From Escherichia coli (GTDB lineage Bacteria; Pseudomonadota; Gammaproteobacteria; Enterobacterales; Enterobacteriaceae), in assembly GCF_030013595.1 (NCBI RefSeq), contig NZ_CP122771.1: DNA of 64,000 nt; one strand, written 5' to 3'. Shown in pieces: positions 18,055 to 56,835 of the stretch. How positions within the stretch are numbered: position 1 is the stretch's first letter; every line of letters starts with the position of its first letter. A program made the position numbers and the translations under genes. Below the pieces are notes generated by a model. It was given only the letters and a program-made list of their open reading frames with translations, was not told the origin of the DNA and searched no databases.

Positions 18055-20280
18055 ATGAGTTTTAACGCAAAGGATATGACCCAGGGCGGTCAGATTGCGT
18101 CCATGCGTATCCGCATGTTCAGCCAGATCGCCAATATCATGCTTTACTGCCTGTTTATTTTTTTCTGGATACTCGTTGGTCTGATTTTATGGGTAAAAAT
18201 AAGCTGGCAGACGTTTGTGAACGGCTGTATTTACTGGTGGTGTACCACGCTGGAAGGCATGCGGGATTTAATCAAGTCCCAGCCAGTATATGAGATCCAG
18301 TATTACGGCAAAACCTTCCGGATGAACGCGGCTCAGGTACTGCATGATAAATACATGATCTGGTGCGGTGAGCAGCTATGGTCCGCATTCGTTCTGGCGT
18401 CTGTCGTGGCCCTGGTTATTTGCCTGATTACCTTCTTTGTTGTTTCCTGGATTCTGGGGCGTCAGGGTAAACAACAGAGCGAAAATGAAGTCACAGGTGG
18501 TCGTCAGCTGACAGACAATCCGAAAGATGTTGCCCGGATGCTGAAAAAAGACGGCAAGGACTCCGATATCCGGATTGGCGACCTGCCGATTATCCGAGAT
18601 TCCGAAATCCAGAACTTCTGTCTGCACGGCACAGTCGGGGCCGGTAAGTCGGAGGTTATCCGTCGTCTGGCCAACTACGCCCGTAAGCGTGGTGATATGG
18701 TGGTGATTTATGACCGTTCAGGGGAATTTGTTAAAAGTTACTATGATCCCTCCATCGATAAAATCCTGAATCCGCTGGATGCCCGCTGTGCCGCATGGGA
18801 TTTGTGGAAGGAGTGCCTGACACAGCCGGATTTTGATAATACCGCGAACACGCTGATCCCTATGGGTACAAAAGAGGACCCGTTCTGGCAGGGGTCAGGA
18901 CGTACCATTTTTGCGGAAGCGGCGTACCTGATGCGTAATGACCCCAACCGCAGCTACAGCAAACTGGTGGACACACTGCTTTCCATCAAAATCGAAAAAC
19001 TGCGTACCTTCCTGCGTAATTCACCGGCAGCCAACCTGGTGGAAGAGAAAATTGAGAAAACGGCGATTTCCATCCGTGCTGTGCTGACCAACTACGTGAA
19101 AGCCATCCGTTACCTGCAGGGGATTGAGCATAACGGTGAGTCTTTTACCATCCGTGACTGGATGCGTGGTGTCCGGGAAGATCAGAAAAACGGCTGGCTG
19201 TTTATCTCGTCGAATGCCGACACCCATGCCTCCCTGAAGCCGGTGATCTCCATGTGGCTGTCCATTGCCATTCGTGGTCTGCTGGCAATGGGAGAAAACC
19301 GTAATCGTCGTGTGTGGTTTTTCTGTGACGAGTTACCCACGTTACACAAACTGCCGGACCTGGTGGAGATCCTGCCGGAAGCCCGTAAGTTCGGTGGCTG
19401 TTATGTGTTTGGTATCCAGTCCTATGCCCAGCTGGAAGATATCTACGGTGAGAAAGCGGCGGCCACGCTGTTTGACGTCATGAACACCCGTGCCTTTTTC
19501 CGTTCTCCCAGCCATAAGATTGCAGAGTTCGCTGCCGGTGAAATTGGTGAGAAAGAGCACCTGAAAGCCAGCGAGCAGTATTCCTACGGTGCTGACCCGG
19601 TACGTGACGGGGTATCGACCGGTAAGGATATGGAGCGTCAGACGCTGGTCAGTTATTCCGACATTCAGTCTCTGCCGGATCTGACCTGTTATGTCACTCT
19701 GCCCGGACCGTATCCGGCAGTCAAACTCTCTCTGAAATATCAGGCACGTCCGAAGGTTGCCCCGGAGTTTATTCCGCGTGACATCAACCCGGAAATGGAG
19801 AACCGTCTGAGTGCCGTACTTGCCGCAAGGGAAGCAGAAGGTCGCCAGATGGCCAGCCTCTTCGAACCGGAGGTTGCCTCCGGAGAAGGCGTGACTCAGG
19901 CTGAACAGCCACAACAGCCACAACAGCCACAACAGCCACAACAGCCACAACAGCCACAACAGCCACAACAGCCACAACAGCCACAACAGCCACAACAGCC
20001 AGTGTCTTCTGTCATCAATGATAAGAAGTCAGATGCAGGTGTGAGTGTTCCGGCAGGGGGGATCGAGCAGGAGCTGAAAATGAAACCGGAAGAAGAGATG
20101 GAACAGCAACTGCCACCCGGGATCAGTGAATCCGGTGAAGTGGTGGATATGGCCGCTTATGAGGCATGGCAACAGGAAAATCATCCGGACATCCAGCAGC
20201 ATATGCAGCGTCGTGAAGAGGTGAACATTAATGTACACCGGGAGCGCGGGGAGGATGTTGAGCCGGGAGATGATTTCTGA
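18055..20280 (+). CDS. traD: TraD, type IV coupling protein
   Basis: 741 aa, N-terminal TM segments, Walker [10 protein letters not shown]-terminal QQP repeat tract and acidic tail as in F/R100 TraD. Confidence 0.95.
19906..19995 (+). repeat. Tandem 9-bp repeat (cagccacaa) x10 encoding the (QQP)n tract of TraD
   Basis: Ten perfect 9-bp units read directly in the sequence. Confidence 0.9.
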
Positions 20281-35155: not shown

Positions 35156-35480
35156 CAGCTTTCCTGTAGAAGCCTCCTGACTATAAGGCTCCGGATATCT
35201 TACCCGCTCATTTTGGCTGGAGGTAGTGGTGGCGTCAGAGGATGAATTACTGACATTGTATATGAAGCTTTGAGTTTTTTCTGGATTTCATCAGTGTTTA
35301 TCTTTATTTGTTCTTGTTTGTTCTCTTTTGTGCTGTTGGAGTCGGTTTTTGTCTGTGTTTTTCTTTATTTTTCCATTTGTGGCCGATATCAGGTCTTTAC
35401 CGATACGTTGTTTTAGGTGATAATCGTTTTTGATCTCGTATTTTTCTAAAAAAATCCATTTTATTTATGTGAGGTTCTAG

Positions 35481-39997: not shown

Positions 39998-40777
39998 ATG
40001 AACGAAAACAGCACGCTGAACGCACTGATTTGTCGTCACGCCCGTAACCTGCTGCTGGCGCAGGGCTGGCCGGAGGAGACGGATGTTGATCAGCGAGATC
40101 CACAGAACTATCCGGGCTGGATCAGCATTTACGTGCGGCTGGATGCGCCCCGGCTGGCGACGTTACTTATCAACCGTCACGGCGGCGTACTGCCGCCGCT
40201 CCTGGCCTCCGCCATTCAGAGACTGACCGGAACCGGGGCGGAACTGGTACTGTCCGGCAGTCAGTGGCAGTCGCTGCCGGTACTTCCGGCAGACGGAACG
40301 CAGGTGTCTTTCCCGTATGCCGGAGAATGGCTGACCGAAGACGAAATCAGGGCTGTTCTTGATGCGGTGCACGATGCGGTACGAAGCATCTGTTACCAGG
40401 TGGCAGAAGATGCGCGGCGTATCCGTGCGGCGCTGACCACCACCGGTCAGACGTTGCTGACCCGCCAGACGCGCCGCTTTCGCCTGGTCGTGAAGGAAAG
40501 CGATCACCCCTGCTGGCTCGATGAAGATGACGAAAACCTGCCCGTGGTGCTCGATGCCATCGTGAACCGGGGAGCACGTTTTTCGTCGGTGGAAATGTAT
40601 CTGGTCAGTGAGTGTATTGAGCATATCCTGTCCAGTGGGCTGGCCTGCGATGTGCTGCGTATACCGGATGAACCGCCCCGCCGCTGGTTTGACCGTGGTG
40701 TTCTGCGGGAAGTTGTCCGGGAAGCCCGGGCCGAAATCCGCAGCATGGCGGATGCCCTGACAAAAATCAGGGGCTGA
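39998..40777 (+). CDS. Hypothetical leading-region protein (259 aa)
   Basis: ATG 39998 preceded by agggaga; uninterrupted ORF. Confidence 0.55.
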
Positions 40778-41189
40778 TGATGGCGGGGAAAATCCCCGCC
40801 TTTTTCCTGCCGGTCCCCGGACAGAGCACAAAGGAAGTCGCCGCCGGCTCCGCTTTACCCGGCCATGCAGGCATGGCCTTGTGGGTTTTCAGTTATGTGG
40901 CCACAGTGTCGTGTGCGGGCTGTGCCGTGCCTCCATCTTAGCCGGGCTGGCGTTGATGCAAGGGTACGCTTCGCCGCTGCGGTCACCCGGTCCCTCCTTC
41001 CCGTCTGCCGTGATTTTCCGGTCGTTCACCCGCTCAGATTTCGCGGTCTCACCCTCCAACTCCCGCCAGCCGTGTGCGTCAGGCTGCGGCTTCCCTTGCG
41101 CCCTGTGCATCCCCGCCTTATCGCCCGGCTTTTATGGAGGCACGGCACCGCCCGGTGTCGCGGAATATGTGAACAACGGAGGAAATCCC

Positions 41190-42272: not shown

Positions 42273-42458
42273 TACAGAGGCAGGCGGTGGAGGCCGCCTG
42301 TCAGCCCGCGCGAAAACCCCTGGCAGGCTGGCGCCTGCCGGAAGGGAAGCGGGCCACGCTGGCGCGTCGCCCGTTACCCTTCCCGTTTGTGATGTGTCCG
42401 GAATGTTTTTTTCTGATGGTATGACCCTGTTCCTGTTGTTGTTGTTGTTCTTTTCTCT

Positions 42459-43072
42459 GCTGCCCTGATTCTGACTACTGCAGTGTTGTCCTGTCTGCCT
42501 GCGCACCTTCGGCTCCCGGCTGCCTGGCGGCATCCGGTCGTCAGGCCCGACTCCGACAGGCAGCTGCTGGCGCACCCGCCAGTCTCCGCCGAACCCGCTG
42601 GCGCGGTTTCGGGCTGTCGCTACGGTCCGATGCGTGAAAACCCCGGGCTTGCAGCGACCGTTCCGGTCGCGCCACCCTTGTCGCGCCGTGGCCTGCGCTC
42701 CCGGCATCCCGGCAAAAGGCCGCCGGGATGTAAGGCGCAACGCCGTTTCGCGCACGCGCTCTCCGTCGTTGCGGCGGGTCCCTGCTCATTGCCTGCCGGG
42801 TGCCACACACCCGTATGAGTCCCTGTCGCCGGGGGCTGATACAGCCACAACCTGCCGCACTGACTGTCCAGGGTAAATGAACAGCCCACAAAATTTTTTA
42901 CCCAAAACCCGGTAAAAAATTTTGCGTTCTGCCCGGGACAGGTGCGTCAGGCCGTGGCAGTGATGCCCCTTGCGGCGAAGGTTCTCAAACGGGTGAAGTT
43001 CATACCACAGGGAATACAGCAGCAGGTTCCCGCGAAACGTCAAAACCGCGGCTCCCGAAACTCAACGGGTGA
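42459..43072 (+). repeat. Leading-region repeat type B, copy 1 (Frpo-like; contains a 14-bp perfect hairpin at 42888-42926)
   Basis: About 600 bp shared with 45926-46373 and 56247-56835; conserved hairpin CAAAATTTTTTACC/GGTAAAAAATTTTG. Confidence 0.7.
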
Positions 43073-43303
43073 TGTTCTTTAAAAATCAGGATTTATTTCA
43101 GGCTCCGGCAATATGCATTTATTTGTTCTGTCAGTCATCCGGCTGGCAGGTAATGAGAACGCAGGAACAGAAGGAGGAAAACACCGGAGAACGTCAGACG
43201 CAGATATGAAAAAAGCAGGTCAGGGACCTGCTTAATCCACACCGCAGAGACTGCACGAACAGTCTTTACGGTTTCATTAATTAACGTCATAAGAGGCTAA
43301 ATT

Positions 43304-43534
43304 ATGACAGTAAGTATTGTTTCACCTTCCGCAGCGGCTGTAAAGCCCCGCCGTCATCCCCGTTTCAGACGCGAAGACATCCCCGCGCCGGAAATTGACC
43401 CCGTGCTGAAAGCCTTCGGGCGACACATTGCCCGGAGTTTTCACCGGGGGCGTGGTGTACACATCCCCGCCATGAAAAACACGACCTTCGGGCAGGTGCT
43501 CCGCACACTCGAACTGAAACGCGCTTTTAACTGA
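43304..43534 (+). CDS. Hypothetical small basic protein (76 aa)
   Basis: ATG with upstream gaggc; first ORF after repeat B copy 1. Confidence 0.4.
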   Translation: MTVSIVSPSAAAVKPRRHPRFRREDIPAPEIDPVLKAFGRHIARSFHRGRGVHIPAMKNTTFGQVLRTLELKRAFN

Positions 43535-44993: not shown

Positions 44994-45557
44994 ATGCACA
45001 GTCAGTTAAGAGAACGTATCCGGCTGATGCGCGCAAGGCTGGATAACGCCGCGCCGGTTGCTGAAATCCGGGCTGAATCTCAGCTTTTTGTGACTCCTGC
45101 CCCGGTCTGTGATCGCCTGGTGACGCTGGCGGAGATCAGCAACCGTGATCACATTCTGGAACCCTCTGCCGGCACCGGGGCCATACTGCGGGCGATTCGG
45201 GATACCGCGCCGGGGGCCATGTGTGATGCGGTGGAAATCAACAGCGGGCTGGTCCGGTATCTGCGGGAAAATTTTAACGGTGTCAGGGTTCAGTGTGGCG
45301 ACTTCATGGAATGGCAGCCGGTGCAGTATTACAGCCGGGTTATCATGAATCCGCCGTTCAGCCACGGGCAGGATATCCGGCATATCCTGCGGGCCTTTTC
45401 CCTGTTGCGTCCGGGTGGCGTGCTGGTCGCCGTCTGTCTCAACGGACCACGCCAGCAGGAGAAGCTGTTGCCGTTTTCTGACGTCCGCGAGGAGCTGCCG
45501 CGCGGCACGTTTGCTTATACCCGTGTTCCGACGATGATTATTCGTCTGCGGGCCTGA
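44994..45557 (+). CDS. Orphan SAM-dependent DNA methyltransferase (EPSAGTGA motif I, then NPPF motif IV)
   Basis: 187 aa with ILEPSAGTGAIL and VIMNPPFSHG; no partner endonuclease. Confidence 0.7.
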   Translation: MHSQLRERIRLMRARLDNAAPVAEIRAESQLFVTPAPVCDRLVTLAEISNRDHILEPSAGTGAILRAIRDTAPGAMCDAVEINSGLVRYLRENFNGVRVQCGDFMEWQPVQYYSRVIMNPPFSHGQDIRHILRAFSLLRPGGVLVAVCLNGPRQQEKLLPFSDVREELPRGTFAYTRVPTMIIRLRA

Positions 45558-45721
45558 AGACGCCGGGCAGGCGGGAGGATAAATGCCTGTCTGTCCGCGC
45601 CGGGAAAAGACCGCGCGCCGGTGGCGCTGAAAGGGGCCGCGCTGACGCGCCGCCCCTTTCATTACGCGGACGTTCTGACGGGGGCTTCTGTCTTTTCAGA
45701 CCTGTCATTTGCCTGTTACTG

Positions 45722-45775
45722 ATGATGTTGTTGTTCCTGCTACTGCTACTGCTACTGCTACTGCTACTGCTACTG
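45722..45775 (+). repeat. Microsatellite (GTT)n followed by (CTGCTA)6 upstream of repeat B copy 2
   Basis: Six perfect tandem CTGCTA units read directly; the equivalent position in copy 1 (42432-42450) carries (GTT)5. Confidence 0.85.
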
Positions 45776-45925
45776 TTCTTCTTTTTTCTGATGCTCTCAT
45801 TACTGTCTGTTTTGTTGTTCTCCTGCTTATGCCTTTTCCGGGCGTCCCCCTGGCGGGGCGGGCTGTCGTGAACGGAGCCAGCGAAGCTGTCTCCGCCCTG
45901 GCGGGCTTCCATCCCTGACGCCAAA

Positions 45926-46373
45926 CCCCCTGGCTTGCAGCGACCGTTCCGGTCGCGCCGCCTCTGTCGCGCCGTGACCTGCGCTCCCGGCATCCCGGCA
46001 AAAGGCCGCCGGGATGTGAGGGGCAACGCCGTTTCGCGCACGCGCTCTTCGTCGTTGCGGCGGGTGCCTGCCCGTTGTTGTATCCGGTGCCCTGCACCCG
46101 TTTAAGCCCCTGTCGCCGGGGGCAAAGACAGCCACAACCGTCTCCGCCAGTCCAGGGGTGAAATGCACATCCCACAAAAGTTTTTGCCCAAAAGCCGGCA
46201 AAAACTTTTGTGGTCTGCCCCCGGACAGTCGTTTCCGGCCGTGGCAGTGATGCCCCTTGCGGCGAAGGTTCTCAAACGGGTGATGGTTAATACCGGAGGG
46301 AACAAACGGCAGGTCCCCGCAAAACGTCAAAACCGCGGCTCCCGAAACTCAACGGGTGATGGGGGCTGAAAAC
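45926..46373 (+). repeat. Leading-region repeat type B, copy 2 (5'-truncated; hairpin at 46174-46212)
   Basis: Aligns with copy 1 from ...ggcttgcagcgaccgttcc onward; hairpin arms carry compensatory changes. Confidence 0.7.
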
Positions 46374-46394
46374 ATCAACAGAAGGAGACACATC

Positions 46395-46925
46395 ATGGCA
46401 GTTCGTGGAATTAACAAGGTCATTCTTGTCGGTCGCCTGGGAAAAGATCCGGAAGTCCGTTACATCCCCAACGGGGGCGCAGTGGCAAACCTGCAGGTGG
46501 CCACGTCAGAAAGCTGGCGTGACAAACAGACGGGGGAGATGCGGGAGCAGACGGAATGGCATCGCGTGGTGTTGTTCGGCAAGCTCGCGGAAGTGGCTGG
46601 TGAATATTTGCGTAAGGGTGCGCAGGTCTACATCGAGGGGCAACTCCGTACCCGTAGCTGGGACGACAACAACGGCGTCACCCGTTACATCACTGAAATC
46701 CTTGTTAAAAACACGGGCACCATGCAGATGCTGGGACGTGCCGCAGGTACTCAGACTCAGCCGGAAGAGGCGCAACAGTTCAGCGGTCAGCCTCAGCCGG
46801 AATCACAGCCGGAACCGAAAAAAGGTGGCGCGAAAACGAAAGGCCGTGGACGTAAGGCCGCGCAGCCGGAGCCTCAGCAGCCGTCTGAACCCGCGTATGA
46901 CTTCGATGACGACATTCCGTTCTAA
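46395..46925 (+). CDS. ssb: Plasmid single-stranded DNA-binding protein
   Basis: [48 protein letters not shown]... OB-fold and acidic C-terminal tail DFDDDIPF. Confidence 0.9.
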
Positions 46926-53591: not shown

Positions 53592-53902
53592 CAACCTGGA
53601 GGCGGGCGCAGGCCCGCCTTTTCAGGACTGATGCTGGTCTGACTACTGAAGCGCCTTTATAAAGGGGCTGCTGGTTCGCCGGTAGCCCCTTTCTCCTTGC
53701 TGATGTTGTACGGGCATGAACAACCTGACTTCAGGAAGGTCGTTTCCCTTCAGGAACGGGGATGAACGCGCGCCTGCGGCGCCCGTTCTTTTCCCCCGCC
53801 TTCTCTGGTTATGGCCTGTCAGAAATCACATCACCTTCCCTGTGATTATTCTCTTTTTCTTCCTGCTCTGATTCTGACTACTGCAGTGTTGTCCTGTCTG
53901 CC

Positions 53903-56246
53903 GGGTCGGGTAGCAGCGGCACATTGCTGCGCCGCCGCCCCCTAAGAACGGAGCGTGCGAGTTTTCCCGCACTCCGCTCAAGCCTTTATAAGTGCTTTCG
54001 GTGAGCACCGGCTTCCCTGCTGTGTAACTGTCGGTGGCAGTTCGGATGTAACAACTCGAGATTGGTCAGTTCGTCACTGCCGCCCATAACTTTCCTGATC
54101 CGGTGATGTATATTCCATCCGGTCTGGTTGGTTATGAGTTGTCCGCACTGCGGACAGTGTTTCCCCTGCCTCTTCCAGAGTTGAACTACTGTCTTCATCT
54201 TCTTTGATTTGCCTTTCCAGATTAGATCCAGACGACGTTCAAAGTAGATTTCCATTCCGGGGGTGTATGGTGTTGCTTCGCCTTTGATTTTTATATGGCG
54301 CTTTATCGGTGTTTCCATTGCCCGGAAGAGTGTCAGAATTTTCCCTTCCGGGGTTATGGCTTTAAAGATCCAGCGCCTGCCTTCAAAGGAGAAGTATCGT
54401 CCGGCGATCCACCGCAATCCTTTCCGGGGATGCCGTCTTACACACCATCGCCATATAGCTCGCCAGATTTGGGTGTCGACATAATTAAATGTTTCTTTCG
54501 CCACGACGTGTCGGTGATAGGTAGCCCATCCCCGGATCACCGGGTTTAGCTGGCCTATCAGTTTCCATGCCGGGAGCGTCGGATTGCGTTTAATTATTTC
54601 TCTGACTTTACAGAGGAAGTTCTTCAGGTTTTTCTTCGACGGTTTAATCAGCATTTTACCGTTGTACTTCCTGACGTTCTGCCCTAAAAAGTCGAAGCCT
54701 TTATCTATATGTGTGATCGCTGTTTTTTCTTCCGACAGTTCCAGCCCTCGTTCGCGCATGAAAGCTGCAATCAGTGGTCTGACCTCATTTTCCAGCAATT
54801 CACGGGAGCTGCCTGAACAGATGAAATCATCAGCATATCTCACATAATTCACCTGGTGCTTTGCACTGTGATAACCACTTTTCCTGAACGTTTGCATCAG
54901 TTCCTTCTCCAGTCCGTCCAGAGCCATGTTGGCGAGAACAGGGGATATGATGCCTCCCTGCGGTGTCCCGCTGTTCGTATGGTTAAACACGCCTCTTTCC
55001 ATGTAACCTGCTTTCAACCATTTTTTAAGCAGTCTCCTGTCCATCGGAATATGGGAAAGCAGCCAGTCATGGCTGATGTTATCGAAACACCCTTTAATAT
55101 CGCCCTCCAGTATCCATTTGGGCGATACTTTCTGGCTCATCCGCAGAAAAATGGACTCAATGGCGTCATGCGTGCTGCGCATTGGTCTGAAACCATAGCT
55201 GTTATGGTCAGCAGTGGTCTCGGATACGGGTTCCAGAGCCAGCAGCCACAGTGCCTGCATGGCCCGGTCCCTCATTGTGGGTATGCCCAGCGGTCGCGTT
55301 TTGCCGTTTGATTTTGGGATATGTATTCGCCGTAGTGGCTGTGGCCTGTAACCACACAGATTCAGGCTGCATATTCCTTCCCATTTCTCCTTCGGTGTGT
55401 GCCATATTTTTCCGTCAATACCGGGTGTCCTTTTACCGGTATTTTCAGTTACACGCCTGACAGCCACGGCTTTGCCGGAGAATGAGCGGGTGAGGATGCG
55501 CTGTAGTTCTCTGACCTGCCGCCATTGTTGCTGTCGGGTTGCCTTTGCAATCCGTAACTGTAGCTTTCGCACCCGGGCATGGCATGCTTTCCAGTTTATG
55601 GTGTGCCAGCCTGTCGGGTGGGGTATCGTGGACACACTGATGTGTGTATTCATCTCGCTGATATCCTTTTGACTGCTTTACAGCTTTTCATGCAATTAAA
55701 GACCAGACGGAAGTCTGCCCGCTTTCGCGTCGGGGAACCTGCCCCGTATCCCGGTTATTACGGCCGGGCATTCGCTTTTTCCGTCCTCCTATGCCCGCAC
55801 CGCTAACAGTGTTCCTTGCGGTTCACCTGCCTGTGAGGCAGCGATACGGGTTTACCAGGTTCCGCTTAACATACAGAGGGTCAGGGCGGGTTCTGTCTCT
55901 TCACCGGGGGTCTCTGCGCCCATGTGCTCCCTGTGCGCGAGGTAGCAACCGGACCCCGTACCTTTTGGTTCAGGCCTGTCAGCATCTTTGGCCTGTTGCC
56001 GATAACGGTGTTTATCAACAGTTCACATGTGTTAACCCTTCTGACCAGCCTTGCTCTCCTGCCGCATGATGCTTGCAGCAAGGTAAAGCCCCTCACGGGG
56101 CTTTACCCGGGCTGACGCCCGGCTCTCGTTGTCCCGGGAGCTTCAGACCCCGCCGTTGCCGGCAACGCCTGTCCCGGTAGGCTACAGCTAATGGGATAGC
56201 TGGTTTTATCAATGTAAAACAATACGTTAAGCGACTTCCTGTCGCA
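53903..56246 (-). mobile_element. Group II intron (about 2.34 kb) inserted in a type B leading-region repeat; low-coordinate boundary uncertain by about 10 bp
   Basis: Minus-strand 5' end GTGCGAC at 56246; domain V GAGCGGAGTGCGGGAAAACTCGCACGCTCCGTTC at 53946-53979; flanks rejoin to match uninterrupted copy 1 at 42459-42510. Confidence 0.8.
53986..55653 (-). CDS. Group II intron-encoded protein (reverse transcriptase / maturase / HNH endonuclease)
   Basis: 555 aa with RT motifs (YADD), maturase X region and C-terminal HNH-like Cys/His cluster. Confidence 0.9.
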   Translation of the reverse strand: MNTHISVSTIPHPTGWHTINWKACHARVRKLQLRIAKATRQQQWRQVRELQRILTRSFSGKAVAVRRVTENTGKRTPGIDGKIWHTPKEKWEGICSLNLCGYRPQPLRRIHIPKSNGKTRPLGIPTMRDRAMQALWLLALEPVSETTADHNSYGFRPMRSTHDAIESIFLRMSQKVSPKWILEGDIKGCFDNISHDWLLSHIPMDRRLLKKWLKAGYMERGVFNHTNSGTPQGGIISPVLANMALDGLEKELMQTFRKSGYHSAKHQVNYVRYADDFICSGSSRELLENEVRPLIAAFMRERGLELSEEKTAITHIDKGFDFLGQNVRKYNGKMLIKPSKKNLKNFLCKVREIIKRNPTLPAWKLIGQLNPVIRGWATYHRHVVAKETFNYVDTQIWRAIWRWCVRRHPRKGLRWIAGRYFSFEGRRWIFKAITPEGKILTLFRAMETPIKRHIKIKGEATPYTPGMEIYFERRLDLIWKGKSKKMKTVVQLWKRQGKHCPQCGQLITNQTGWNIHHRIRKVMGGSDELTNLELLHPNCHRQLHSREAGAHRKHL

Positions 56247-56835
56247 CGCGCACCTTCGGCTCCCGGCTGCCTGGCGGCATCCGGTCGTCAGGCCCGACTC
56301 CGACAGGCAGCTGCTGGCGCACCTGCCAGTCTCCGCCGAACCCGCTGGCGCGGTTTCGGGCTGTCGCTACGGTCCGATGCGTGAAAACCCCGGGCTTGCA
56401 GCGACCGTTCCGGTCGCGCCGCCTCTGTCGCGCCGTGGCCTGCGCTCCCGGCATCCCGGCAAAAGGCCGCCGGGATGTAAGGCGCAACGCCGTTTCGCAA
56501 ACCGCGCTTCACGTCGTTGCGGCGGGTCCCTGCCCGTTGTTGTGTCCGGTGCCATTCACCTGTTTAAGCCCCTGTCGCCGGGGGCATAGACAGCCACAAC
56601 CGTCTCCGCCAGTCCAGGGGTGAAATGCACATCCCGCAAAACTTTTTGCCCAGAAGCAGGCAAAAACTTTTGCGGTCTGCCCCCGGACAGTCGTTTCCGG
56701 CCGTGGCAGTGATGCCCCATGCGGCGAAGGTTCTCAAACAGGTGATGGTGAATACCGGAGGGAACAAAAGGCAGGTCCCCGCAAAACGTCAAAACCGCGG
56801 CTCCCGAAACTCAACAGATGATGGGGGCTGAAAAC
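56247..56835 (+). repeat. Leading-region repeat type B, copy 3 (its 5' portion at 53862-53902 is separated by the intron; hairpin at 56635-56674)
   Basis: Aligns with copy 1 from gcgcaccttcggctcccggctgcctggcgg onward. Confidence 0.7.

Follow-up and report, generated by a model that had tools for sequence, protein, structure and literature searches.

A hypervariable CTGCTA repeat in the pyrimidine-rich spacer upstream of a putative single-stranded DNA promoter in IncF plasmids

Results

Organisation of the leading region

The window, by which we mean the whole stretch of 64,000 nucleotides of Escherichia coli DNA analysed here, represents the leading region of a plasmid of IncFIA/FIC type. The 1.1 kb of it that was tested is 100% identical to pESBL3153-IncF, also an IncFIA/FIC plasmid, and to relatives of that plasmid, and the annotation of NZ_MW390520, a 100%-identical plasmid, was used for the gene assignments. 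The leading genes follow each other in the order DNA methylase, antirestriction gene, DUF1380 gene, DUF3560 gene, SAM-dependent methyltransferase and ssb, and continue with a parB-like gene, psiB, psiA, hok and then traM. All of them are encoded on the + strand, which makes the - strand the transferred strand. Transcription and complementary-strand synthesis both proceed toward higher coordinates. The features discussed below are the following.

42395-42495, +: pyrimidine-rich spacer 5' of Frpo copy 1, 68% C+T (composition scan, alignment A1)
42426-42449, +: counterpart of the repeats in copy 1, (CCTGTT)2 overlapping (GTT)5 (direct reading and Tandem Repeats Finder, TRF)
42495-43000, -: Frpo-type class 1 ssDNA promoter copy 1, putative (alignment A1; 93% identity to F Frpo2)
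44994-45557, +: class I SAM-dependent methyltransferase gene, the upstream neighbour of the array (ORF list, annotation)
45565-45662, +: two G+C-rich hairpins just 3' of the methyltransferase stop codon, forming the upstream edge of the spacer
45690-45830, +: pyrimidine-rich low-complexity spacer with the copy 2 repeats, 141 nt, 72% C+T, 48% T
45721-45735, +: trinucleotide run (GAT)2(GTT)3, directly 5' of the hexamer array (direct reading)
45737-45775, +: hypervariable hexanucleotide VNTR, (CTGCTA)6 followed by CTG (direct reading and TRF)
45833-46365, -: Frpo-type class 1 ssDNA promoter copy 2, putative equivalent of F Frpo2 (identity, fold)
46395-46925, +: plasmid ssb, the first gene 3' of Frpo copy 2 (NZ_MW390520 annotation, ORF list)
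53775-53900, +: pyrimidine-rich spacer of Frpo copy 3 (sequence; its 3' end matches the end of the copy 1 tract)
56240-56800, -: Frpo-type ssDNA promoter copy 3, putative equivalent of F Frpo1 (97% identity to F Frpo1, alignment A1)

The array is flanked by elements that the earlier note had named type B repeats and had taken for putative ssDNA promoters. This assignment holds. With 88-97% identity to F Frpo1 and Frpo2, computed over 424-570 nt, these repeats are by homology Frpo/ssi class 1 ssDNA promoters, present in three copies. Copy 1 precedes a hypothetical gene, the DUF3560 gene and the methyltransferase gene. Copy 2 shares 88% identity with F Frpo2 and 94% with F Frpo1. The - strand of 45560-46400 is predicted to fold as a long stem-loop (-215.9 kcal/mol, z = -7.75), so that a transferred-strand stem-loop lies 5' of leading genes templated by that same strand, as in the Frpo/ssi class 1 elements. 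RNA polymerase initiation on single-stranded Frpo has been demonstrated for the F plasmid (PMC9849209), and by homology copy 2, when single-stranded on the transferred strand, would drive + sense transcription of ssb. Rfam contains no family that spans the tract or Frpo. Visual inspection of the Frpo stem yielded no convincing placement of -35 and -10 hexamers, and for this reason all distances are measured to the conserved core and not to a mapped promoter.

Further features are found around the promoter copies. Two RefSeq hypothetical proteins of 68 aa, WP_000547945 and WP_000547944, lie wholly within Frpo stem-loops (46163-46369 and the copy 3 equivalent); they are named ssb in some records and are probably spurious. 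Directly 3' of Frpo copy 1, Rfam AS-pc01 (antisense to pHK01_035) matches 43210-43309 on the - strand with 98.9 bits, antisense to the leading genes. The structured pyrimidine-rich intergenic region at about 40780-41180, 5' of the antirestriction gene, corresponds to ssp2, an ssDNA promoter of class 2; a recent preprint (10.64898/2026.01.09.698686) gives an ssp2 primer that maps to 40610-40632.

Sequence anatomy of the array and its spacer

Downstream of the methyltransferase stop codon follow the two hairpins, the 141-nt spacer, a small structured segment and the Frpo core. The hairpins at 45565-45662 are paired in the predicted fold, and a similar pair precedes copy 1. The copy 2 spacer, purine-rich on the transferred strand, includes the 100-nt stretch that ranks first in the window for pyrimidine content, with a fraction of 0.76 compared with a mean of 0.48 (sd 0.066) over the 64 kb. 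Within this spacer, (GAT)2 at 45721-45726 and (GTT)3 at 45727-45735 are followed by a single C at 45736 and then by the hexamer array, for which TRF reports period 6, 6.5 copies and 100% matches. On the transferred strand the array reads (TAGCAG)n. In the copy 1 spacer, which ranks fourth in pyrimidine richness among the 100-nt stretches of the window, (CCTGTT)2 at 42426-42437 overlaps (GTT)5 at 42435-42449; the corresponding TRF call is (TGT)5.3 at 42434-42449. Direct reading and TRF thus confirm the earlier description of (GTT)n and (CTGCTA)6 before copy 2 and of (GTT)5 before copy 1. The repeats had further been described as abutting the promoter copies, and they do precede them. For copy 1 the tract adjoins its repeat; for copy 2 the array ends about 150 nt before the core conserved in all three copies (from about 45928).

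The hexamer array is far beyond chance expectation. It covers 39 nt. When the window was shuffled 100 times, the longest period-6 array reached 17 nt; in 20,000 composition-matched shuffles of the 141-nt tract the maximum was 19 nt. The 16-nt (GTT)5 run of copy 1 is also significant, being equalled in 5e-5 of shuffles. The (GTT)3 run beside the hexamer is not, since a period-3 run of at least 10 nt appears in 5% of shuffles of the T-rich tract.

For copy 3, the possibility that no pyrimidine tract is present was considered and is wrong: the tract lies at 53775-53900, beyond a group II intron on the - strand that now parts it from Frpo copy 3. The junction of tract and promoter without the intron is present in a metagenome contig (L077). 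The intron itself (53899-56248, -) carries Rfam matches to domains D1-D4 at 56054-56203 and to domain V/VI at 53905-53981, and the 555-aa ORF at 53986-55653 within it probably encodes a reverse transcriptase. Its insertion site, on the transferred strand, is precisely the boundary of the pyrimidine tract with Frpo copy 3. Elsewhere in the window, 35275-35390 ranks second in pyrimidine and T content; this stretch contains a (TTTGTTCTCG)2.5 repeat and lies outside the Frpo modules.

Copy-number variation between near-identical plasmids

The number of hexamer units differs widely between plasmids. In nine sequenced plasmids with near-identical flanks we find n = 12, 9, 8, 7, 6, 5, 4, 3 and 2. A metagenome scan with the left flank returned 118 contigs, 117 of which contain the complete array, with the following counts.

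n = 0, 1, 2, 3, 4: 2, 11, 16, 15, 19 contigs
n = 5, 6, 7, 8, 9: 19, 11, 8, 6, 4 contigs
n = 10, 11, 12, 13: 2, 1, 2, 1 contigs

The allele distribution over these 117 contigs is broad and unimodal, with no clustering into classes, and the gene diversity calculated from the counts is about 0.89. Variation is also found on one and the same background. Within single flank haplotypes (146 nt on the left plus 160 nt on the right, 306 nt in total) n ranges from 3 to 7, from 7 to 12 or from 4 to 8. Of the 12 haplotypes that recur, 10 contain more than one allele. Plasmids from a study of pig ETEC match a 1,101-nt query either with 99.9% identity over 1,101 nt or with 99.5% over 1,095 nt; the latter values correspond to one 6-nt gap and no other difference. 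Plasmids that are otherwise identical across the 1,101 nt likewise differ solely by a gap of 6 or 12 nt. In PLSDB and in complete E. coli genomes, span differences occur mostly in 6-nt steps. Klebsiella KPC plasmids with identical flanks carry n = 7, 8 and 9, and the span in pO157 plasmids differs by one 6-nt unit.

The hypervariability proposed in the earlier note is borne out by these data, with n = 0-13 in the contigs, n = 2-12 in the nine plasmids and multiple alleles on identical 306-nt flanks; the comparison of isolates shows unit numbers that differ even between plasmids identical over 1.1 kb. (CTGCTA)n is a VNTR, an array beyond chance that differs by whole units between near-identical sequences. 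The trinucleotide runs are far less variable than the hexamer. In copy 2, (GTT)n has n = 3 in 106 of the 117 contigs and 1, 2, 4 or 5 in the remainder; in copy 1 of other plasmids, n is 3, 4 or 5, with an interrupted run in one of them. The total spacer length ranges from about 134 to 212 nt, which is a variation of about 80 nt. The 331-nt region around the array is present with at least 80% coverage in 1,319 of 5,426 complete E. coli genomes and at least in part in 3,076 of them. Scanning viral contigs with the left flank gave no match.

Some contigs harbour two (CTGCTA)n arrays at a distance of 7-9 kb, namely L015 (positions 771 and 10181) and L086 (2777 and 9817); in L015 the two arrays have n = 4 and n = 2. 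About one third of all arrays precede the long Frpo form, of the type of copies 1 and 3, and not the copy 2 form. Arrays found before either Frpo form indicate that spacers and promoters are mosaic.

Simple repeats are error-prone in some long-read assemblies, and copy-number differences could in principle arise as artefacts of assembly or sequencing. However, the differences are exact multiples of 6 between perfect flanks, in Illumina metagenome contigs and in finished plasmids alike, and the longest arrays (up to 81 nt) are shorter than one read. The array that pSLT carries at the same position is moreover routinely sized by PCR and capillary electrophoresis, according to passages of two reports (PMC6459517, PMC5183578). 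The probability that the variation is artefactual is negligible.

Counterparts in other plasmids

The locus STTR10pl is part of the standard five-locus MLVA scheme for Salmonella Typhimurium and belongs to its virulence plasmid pSLT. In the pSLT record we find (CCTGTT)10.2 between PSLT064 and ssbB, and in alignment A2 this array falls in the same columns as (CTGCTA)6 of the window, 170-230 nt before the conserved Frpo core. The primer sequences that we take to be those of the STTR10pl MLVA assay flank the pSLT array and are absent from the window at up to three mismatches. STTR10pl is described as a 6-bp MLVA locus, intergenic and upstream of ssbB, in a passage of PMC6459517. Passages of PMC5183578 describe single-unit changes during in vitro passage, a dominance of mid-range alleles in 12,112 isolates and directional mutation.

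The two loci share the intergenic position upstream of a Frpo-like element and a plasmid ssb, and also a 6-nt unit rich in pyrimidines on the coding strand and, as far as these passages describe STTR10pl, a highly variable copy number that changes in one-unit steps. They differ in the unit, CCTGTT in pSLT and CTGCTA here, where only copy 1 retains (CCTGTT)2, and in the upstream gene, which is PSLT064 in pSLT and the methyltransferase gene in the window. We conclude from the sequence comparison that the array of the window is a different marker located at the STTR10pl position.

At the equivalent position the F plasmid carries a pure polypyrimidine repeat, (TTCCTCTTC)5.2, upstream of F Frpo2. 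The polypyrimidine run of F extends over about 47 nt (L129, 10016-10062), and its duplex form could in principle make a triplex (H-DNA). Among the contigs, (TTC)4, (TTCCTCTTC)3, (TCTTCC)3 or an 18-nt duplication accompanies other Frpo copies. Upstream of 154 Frpo cores, the maximal pyrimidine fraction in 80 nt has a median of 0.775 compared with 0.59 in random segments of the same loci, a comparison that is descriptive only because the samples are related to one another. Pyrimidine-rich composition thus recurs 5' of all three Frpo copies of the window and in F and pSLT, while the sequence itself is not conserved. In ColIb-P9 (IncI1), the homologous ssi element upstream of ssb has neither a long pyrimidine tract nor a simple repeat. 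Its absence there suggests that the tract is unlikely to be required for a class 1 ssDNA promoter.

The 9-bp VNTR in traD of F-like plasmids is also plasmid-borne and is also present in the window. In contrast to (CTGCTA)n, it is coding, lies in frame within a 741-aa ORF and is unrelated to the leading region. In the window, TRF reports a perfect (AACAGCCAC)10.9 array at 19904-20001 within the 741-aa + strand ORF 18055-20280, which is probably traD. Variability of the 9-bp traD VNTR in pSLT is described in a passage of PMC6459517.

For the (CTGCTA)n array of E. coli and Klebsiella, a literature search, which for part of the literature covered titles and abstracts only, found no description. 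The passages on STTR10 in PMC6459517 and PMC5183578 make no mention of an ssDNA promoter. As far as these passages go, a widely used typing locus appears not to have been connected before with the spacer that precedes an ssDNA promoter.

Predicted effects of the array on transcription, folding and coding

Promoter prediction gives no sigma-70-like site in 45300-46500, and no canonical intrinsic terminator is called on the + strand at the tract. The idea of a double-stranded promoter or a terminator within the array or next to it was rejected on these grounds.

In the predicted fold of the transferred strand, the array is unpaired with P(unpaired) of about 0.65 compared with 0.31 elsewhere, and the spacer as a whole is mostly unpaired. 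Each added hexamer unit changes the predicted energy by about 0.3 kcal/mol, and the predicted minimum-energy fold of Frpo is identical throughout for n = 2-16. A structural role of the array in the transferred strand was rejected on the basis of its predicted unpaired state and the small energy per unit. Nor is the microsatellite integral to the Frpo/ssi class 1 element, given that it is located outside the conserved core, is predicted to be unpaired and is absent next to the ColIb-P9 homologue.

Four ORFs overlap the array. The repeat could encode part of a small hydrophobic peptide, either from the + strand ORF 45722-45871 (MMLLF(LL)n...FFFF...) or from one of the three others, and in every haplotype the ATG-initiated frame is indeed open across the array, which 6-nt steps always preserve. 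However, a Shine-Dalgarno sequence is absent from the 20 nt upstream, and in 108 of 126 sequences the ORF stops 10 codons after the part encoded by the repeat, compared with a total of 49 aa here. The Leu and Phe content is expected from any T-rich DNA. None of the four ORFs matches a Pfam family or is annotated by PGAP. With no Pfam match, no Shine-Dalgarno sequence and a variable ORF end, coding hypotheses were rejected, and we regard a peptide function as very remote.

Discussion

Does the array act on gene expression?

Contingency repeats of promoters are known from (TA)n between the -35 and -10 hexamers of Haemophilus hifA/B and from (TAAA)n upstream of Neisseria nadA. These repeats sit inside the promoter or a regulator site and produce discrete ON/OFF or graded states. 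The (CTGCTA)n array resembles them in being a simple repeat close to a promoter, with a length that changes fast, presumably by slippage. It differs in its location, outside every recognisable promoter element; phase-variable promoter repeats are found inside a promoter, a regulator site or the 5' coding end, and the array is in none of these.

The earlier note had suggested that slipped-strand variation tunes early-gene expression. As a contingency locus, the array would tune or switch the Frpo2 operon (ssb, the parB-like gene, psiB, psiA) through changes in n, or would affect the timing of single- to double-strand conversion in recipients. This proposal could draw on the high mutation rate in whole units, on the proximity of an ssDNA promoter and on the differing simple repeats that F, pSLT and this plasmid each carry at the same position. 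A passage of the STTR10 study also contains the authors' speculation that intergenic repeats might influence transcription-factor binding (PMC5183578). However, about 150 nt separate the array from the conserved core, it is neither between nor next to promoter hexamers, n has no predicted structural effect, and the alleles are broad and unimodal without classes. In the F plasmid, deletion of Frpo2 or of ssb leaves conjugation efficiency unchanged (PMC9849209), and selection on a fine tuning of the operon would therefore be weak, with little to select on. ColIb-P9 has an ssi element and no tract. With the array outside the Frpo element and unpaired, the fold unchanged for n = 2-16 and no sigma-70-type promoter in 45300-46500, the tuning of expression by slippage finds no support, and we consider it improbable that the array is a contingency locus.

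A second proposal places the function in the pyrimidine-rich tract as a module and takes the repeats as tolerated filling, the number of which is relevant only within broad limits. Two roles can be envisaged. The tract could insulate one Frpo unit from transcription of the preceding one or terminate transcripts between them, where RNA rich in rU and rC on purine-rich DNA would form a weak hybrid and thereby aid transcript release from the single-stranded template. Alternatively, it could keep a purine-only part of the transferred strand free of structure, so that the Frpo hairpin can fold independently. The tract follows two G+C-rich hairpins that end the upstream genes in copies 1 and 2, its composition but not its sequence is conserved upstream of Frpo copies, and it is predicted to be unstructured in the T-strand, all of which would fit such a module. 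On the other hand, the + strand lacks a canonical intrinsic terminator call, the tract varies by about 80 nt in length, and the homologous ssi element of ColIb-P9 lacks it. (CTGCTA)n contains no YC dinucleotides and would be a poor Rho loading site; a Rho-loading (rut) role of the array was rejected for this reason, and YC dinucleotides do occur in the tract flanking the array, where Rho loading would be conceivable only within the insulator proposal. We regard a functional module as rather unlikely.

A probable near-neutral slippage hotspot

The reading that we favour, with a probability of roughly 0.6, is that (CTGCTA)n and the shorter (GTT)n runs are a near-neutral VNTR that arises from replication slippage in a low-complexity spacer. 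For the array, we infer both the neutrality and the slippage mechanism. Replication slippage would create the array and keep its copy number variable within a pyrimidine-rich non-coding spacer. In F-like plasmids a spacer of this kind lies between each upstream gene block and the next Frpo-type promoter, here between the methyltransferase gene and Frpo2/ssb. Given that the spacer tolerates lengths of about 134-212 nt, the copy number would drift freely in units of 6 nt.

The position of the array could add to its instability. The polymerase that synthesizes the complementary strand would copy the repeat just before meeting the Frpo2 stem, and pausing at this stem-loop could favour misalignment and raise slippage in the tract. 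The ssDNA promoter ssp2 is reported to stall complementary-strand synthesis in F, and a stalled nascent 3' end has been mapped at its stem during single- to double-strand conversion (bioRxiv 10.64898/2026.01.09.698686). This stalling is reported for ssp2 only, and we infer its transfer to Frpo2.

Two observations speak against strict neutrality. The recurrent pyrimidine composition hints at a constraint on the tract, in which case length might matter weakly. The mid-range alleles and the directional mutation that passages of the STTR10 study describe could reflect selection or an intrinsic bias.

A stronger form of the slippage reading would place it mainly in conjugation, with the nascent end, paused at the Frpo2 stem-loop, re-annealing out of register. 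We consider this form quite improbable. If it is true, the repeat number would change per transfer and not per cell generation, and the array would be a built-in counter of conjugation history. Spacer length might then also be an evolvable tuner of the time during which Frpo2 is single-stranded and active.

Implications for IncF plasmids

By sequence comparison, IncF plasmids of E. coli and Klebsiella carry the array, with its own motif, at the STTR10pl position. (CTGCTA)n could help to track IncF resistance plasmids that are closely related, with high discrimination, a typing role that STTR10pl already fills for pSLT. It could also be a test bed for slippage coupled to conjugation. If the repeats are neutral, as seems most probable, they represent ordinary biology. 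The link between typing locus and promoter nevertheless prompts the question whether the conjugative conversion from single- to double-stranded DNA may be mutagenic at repeats.
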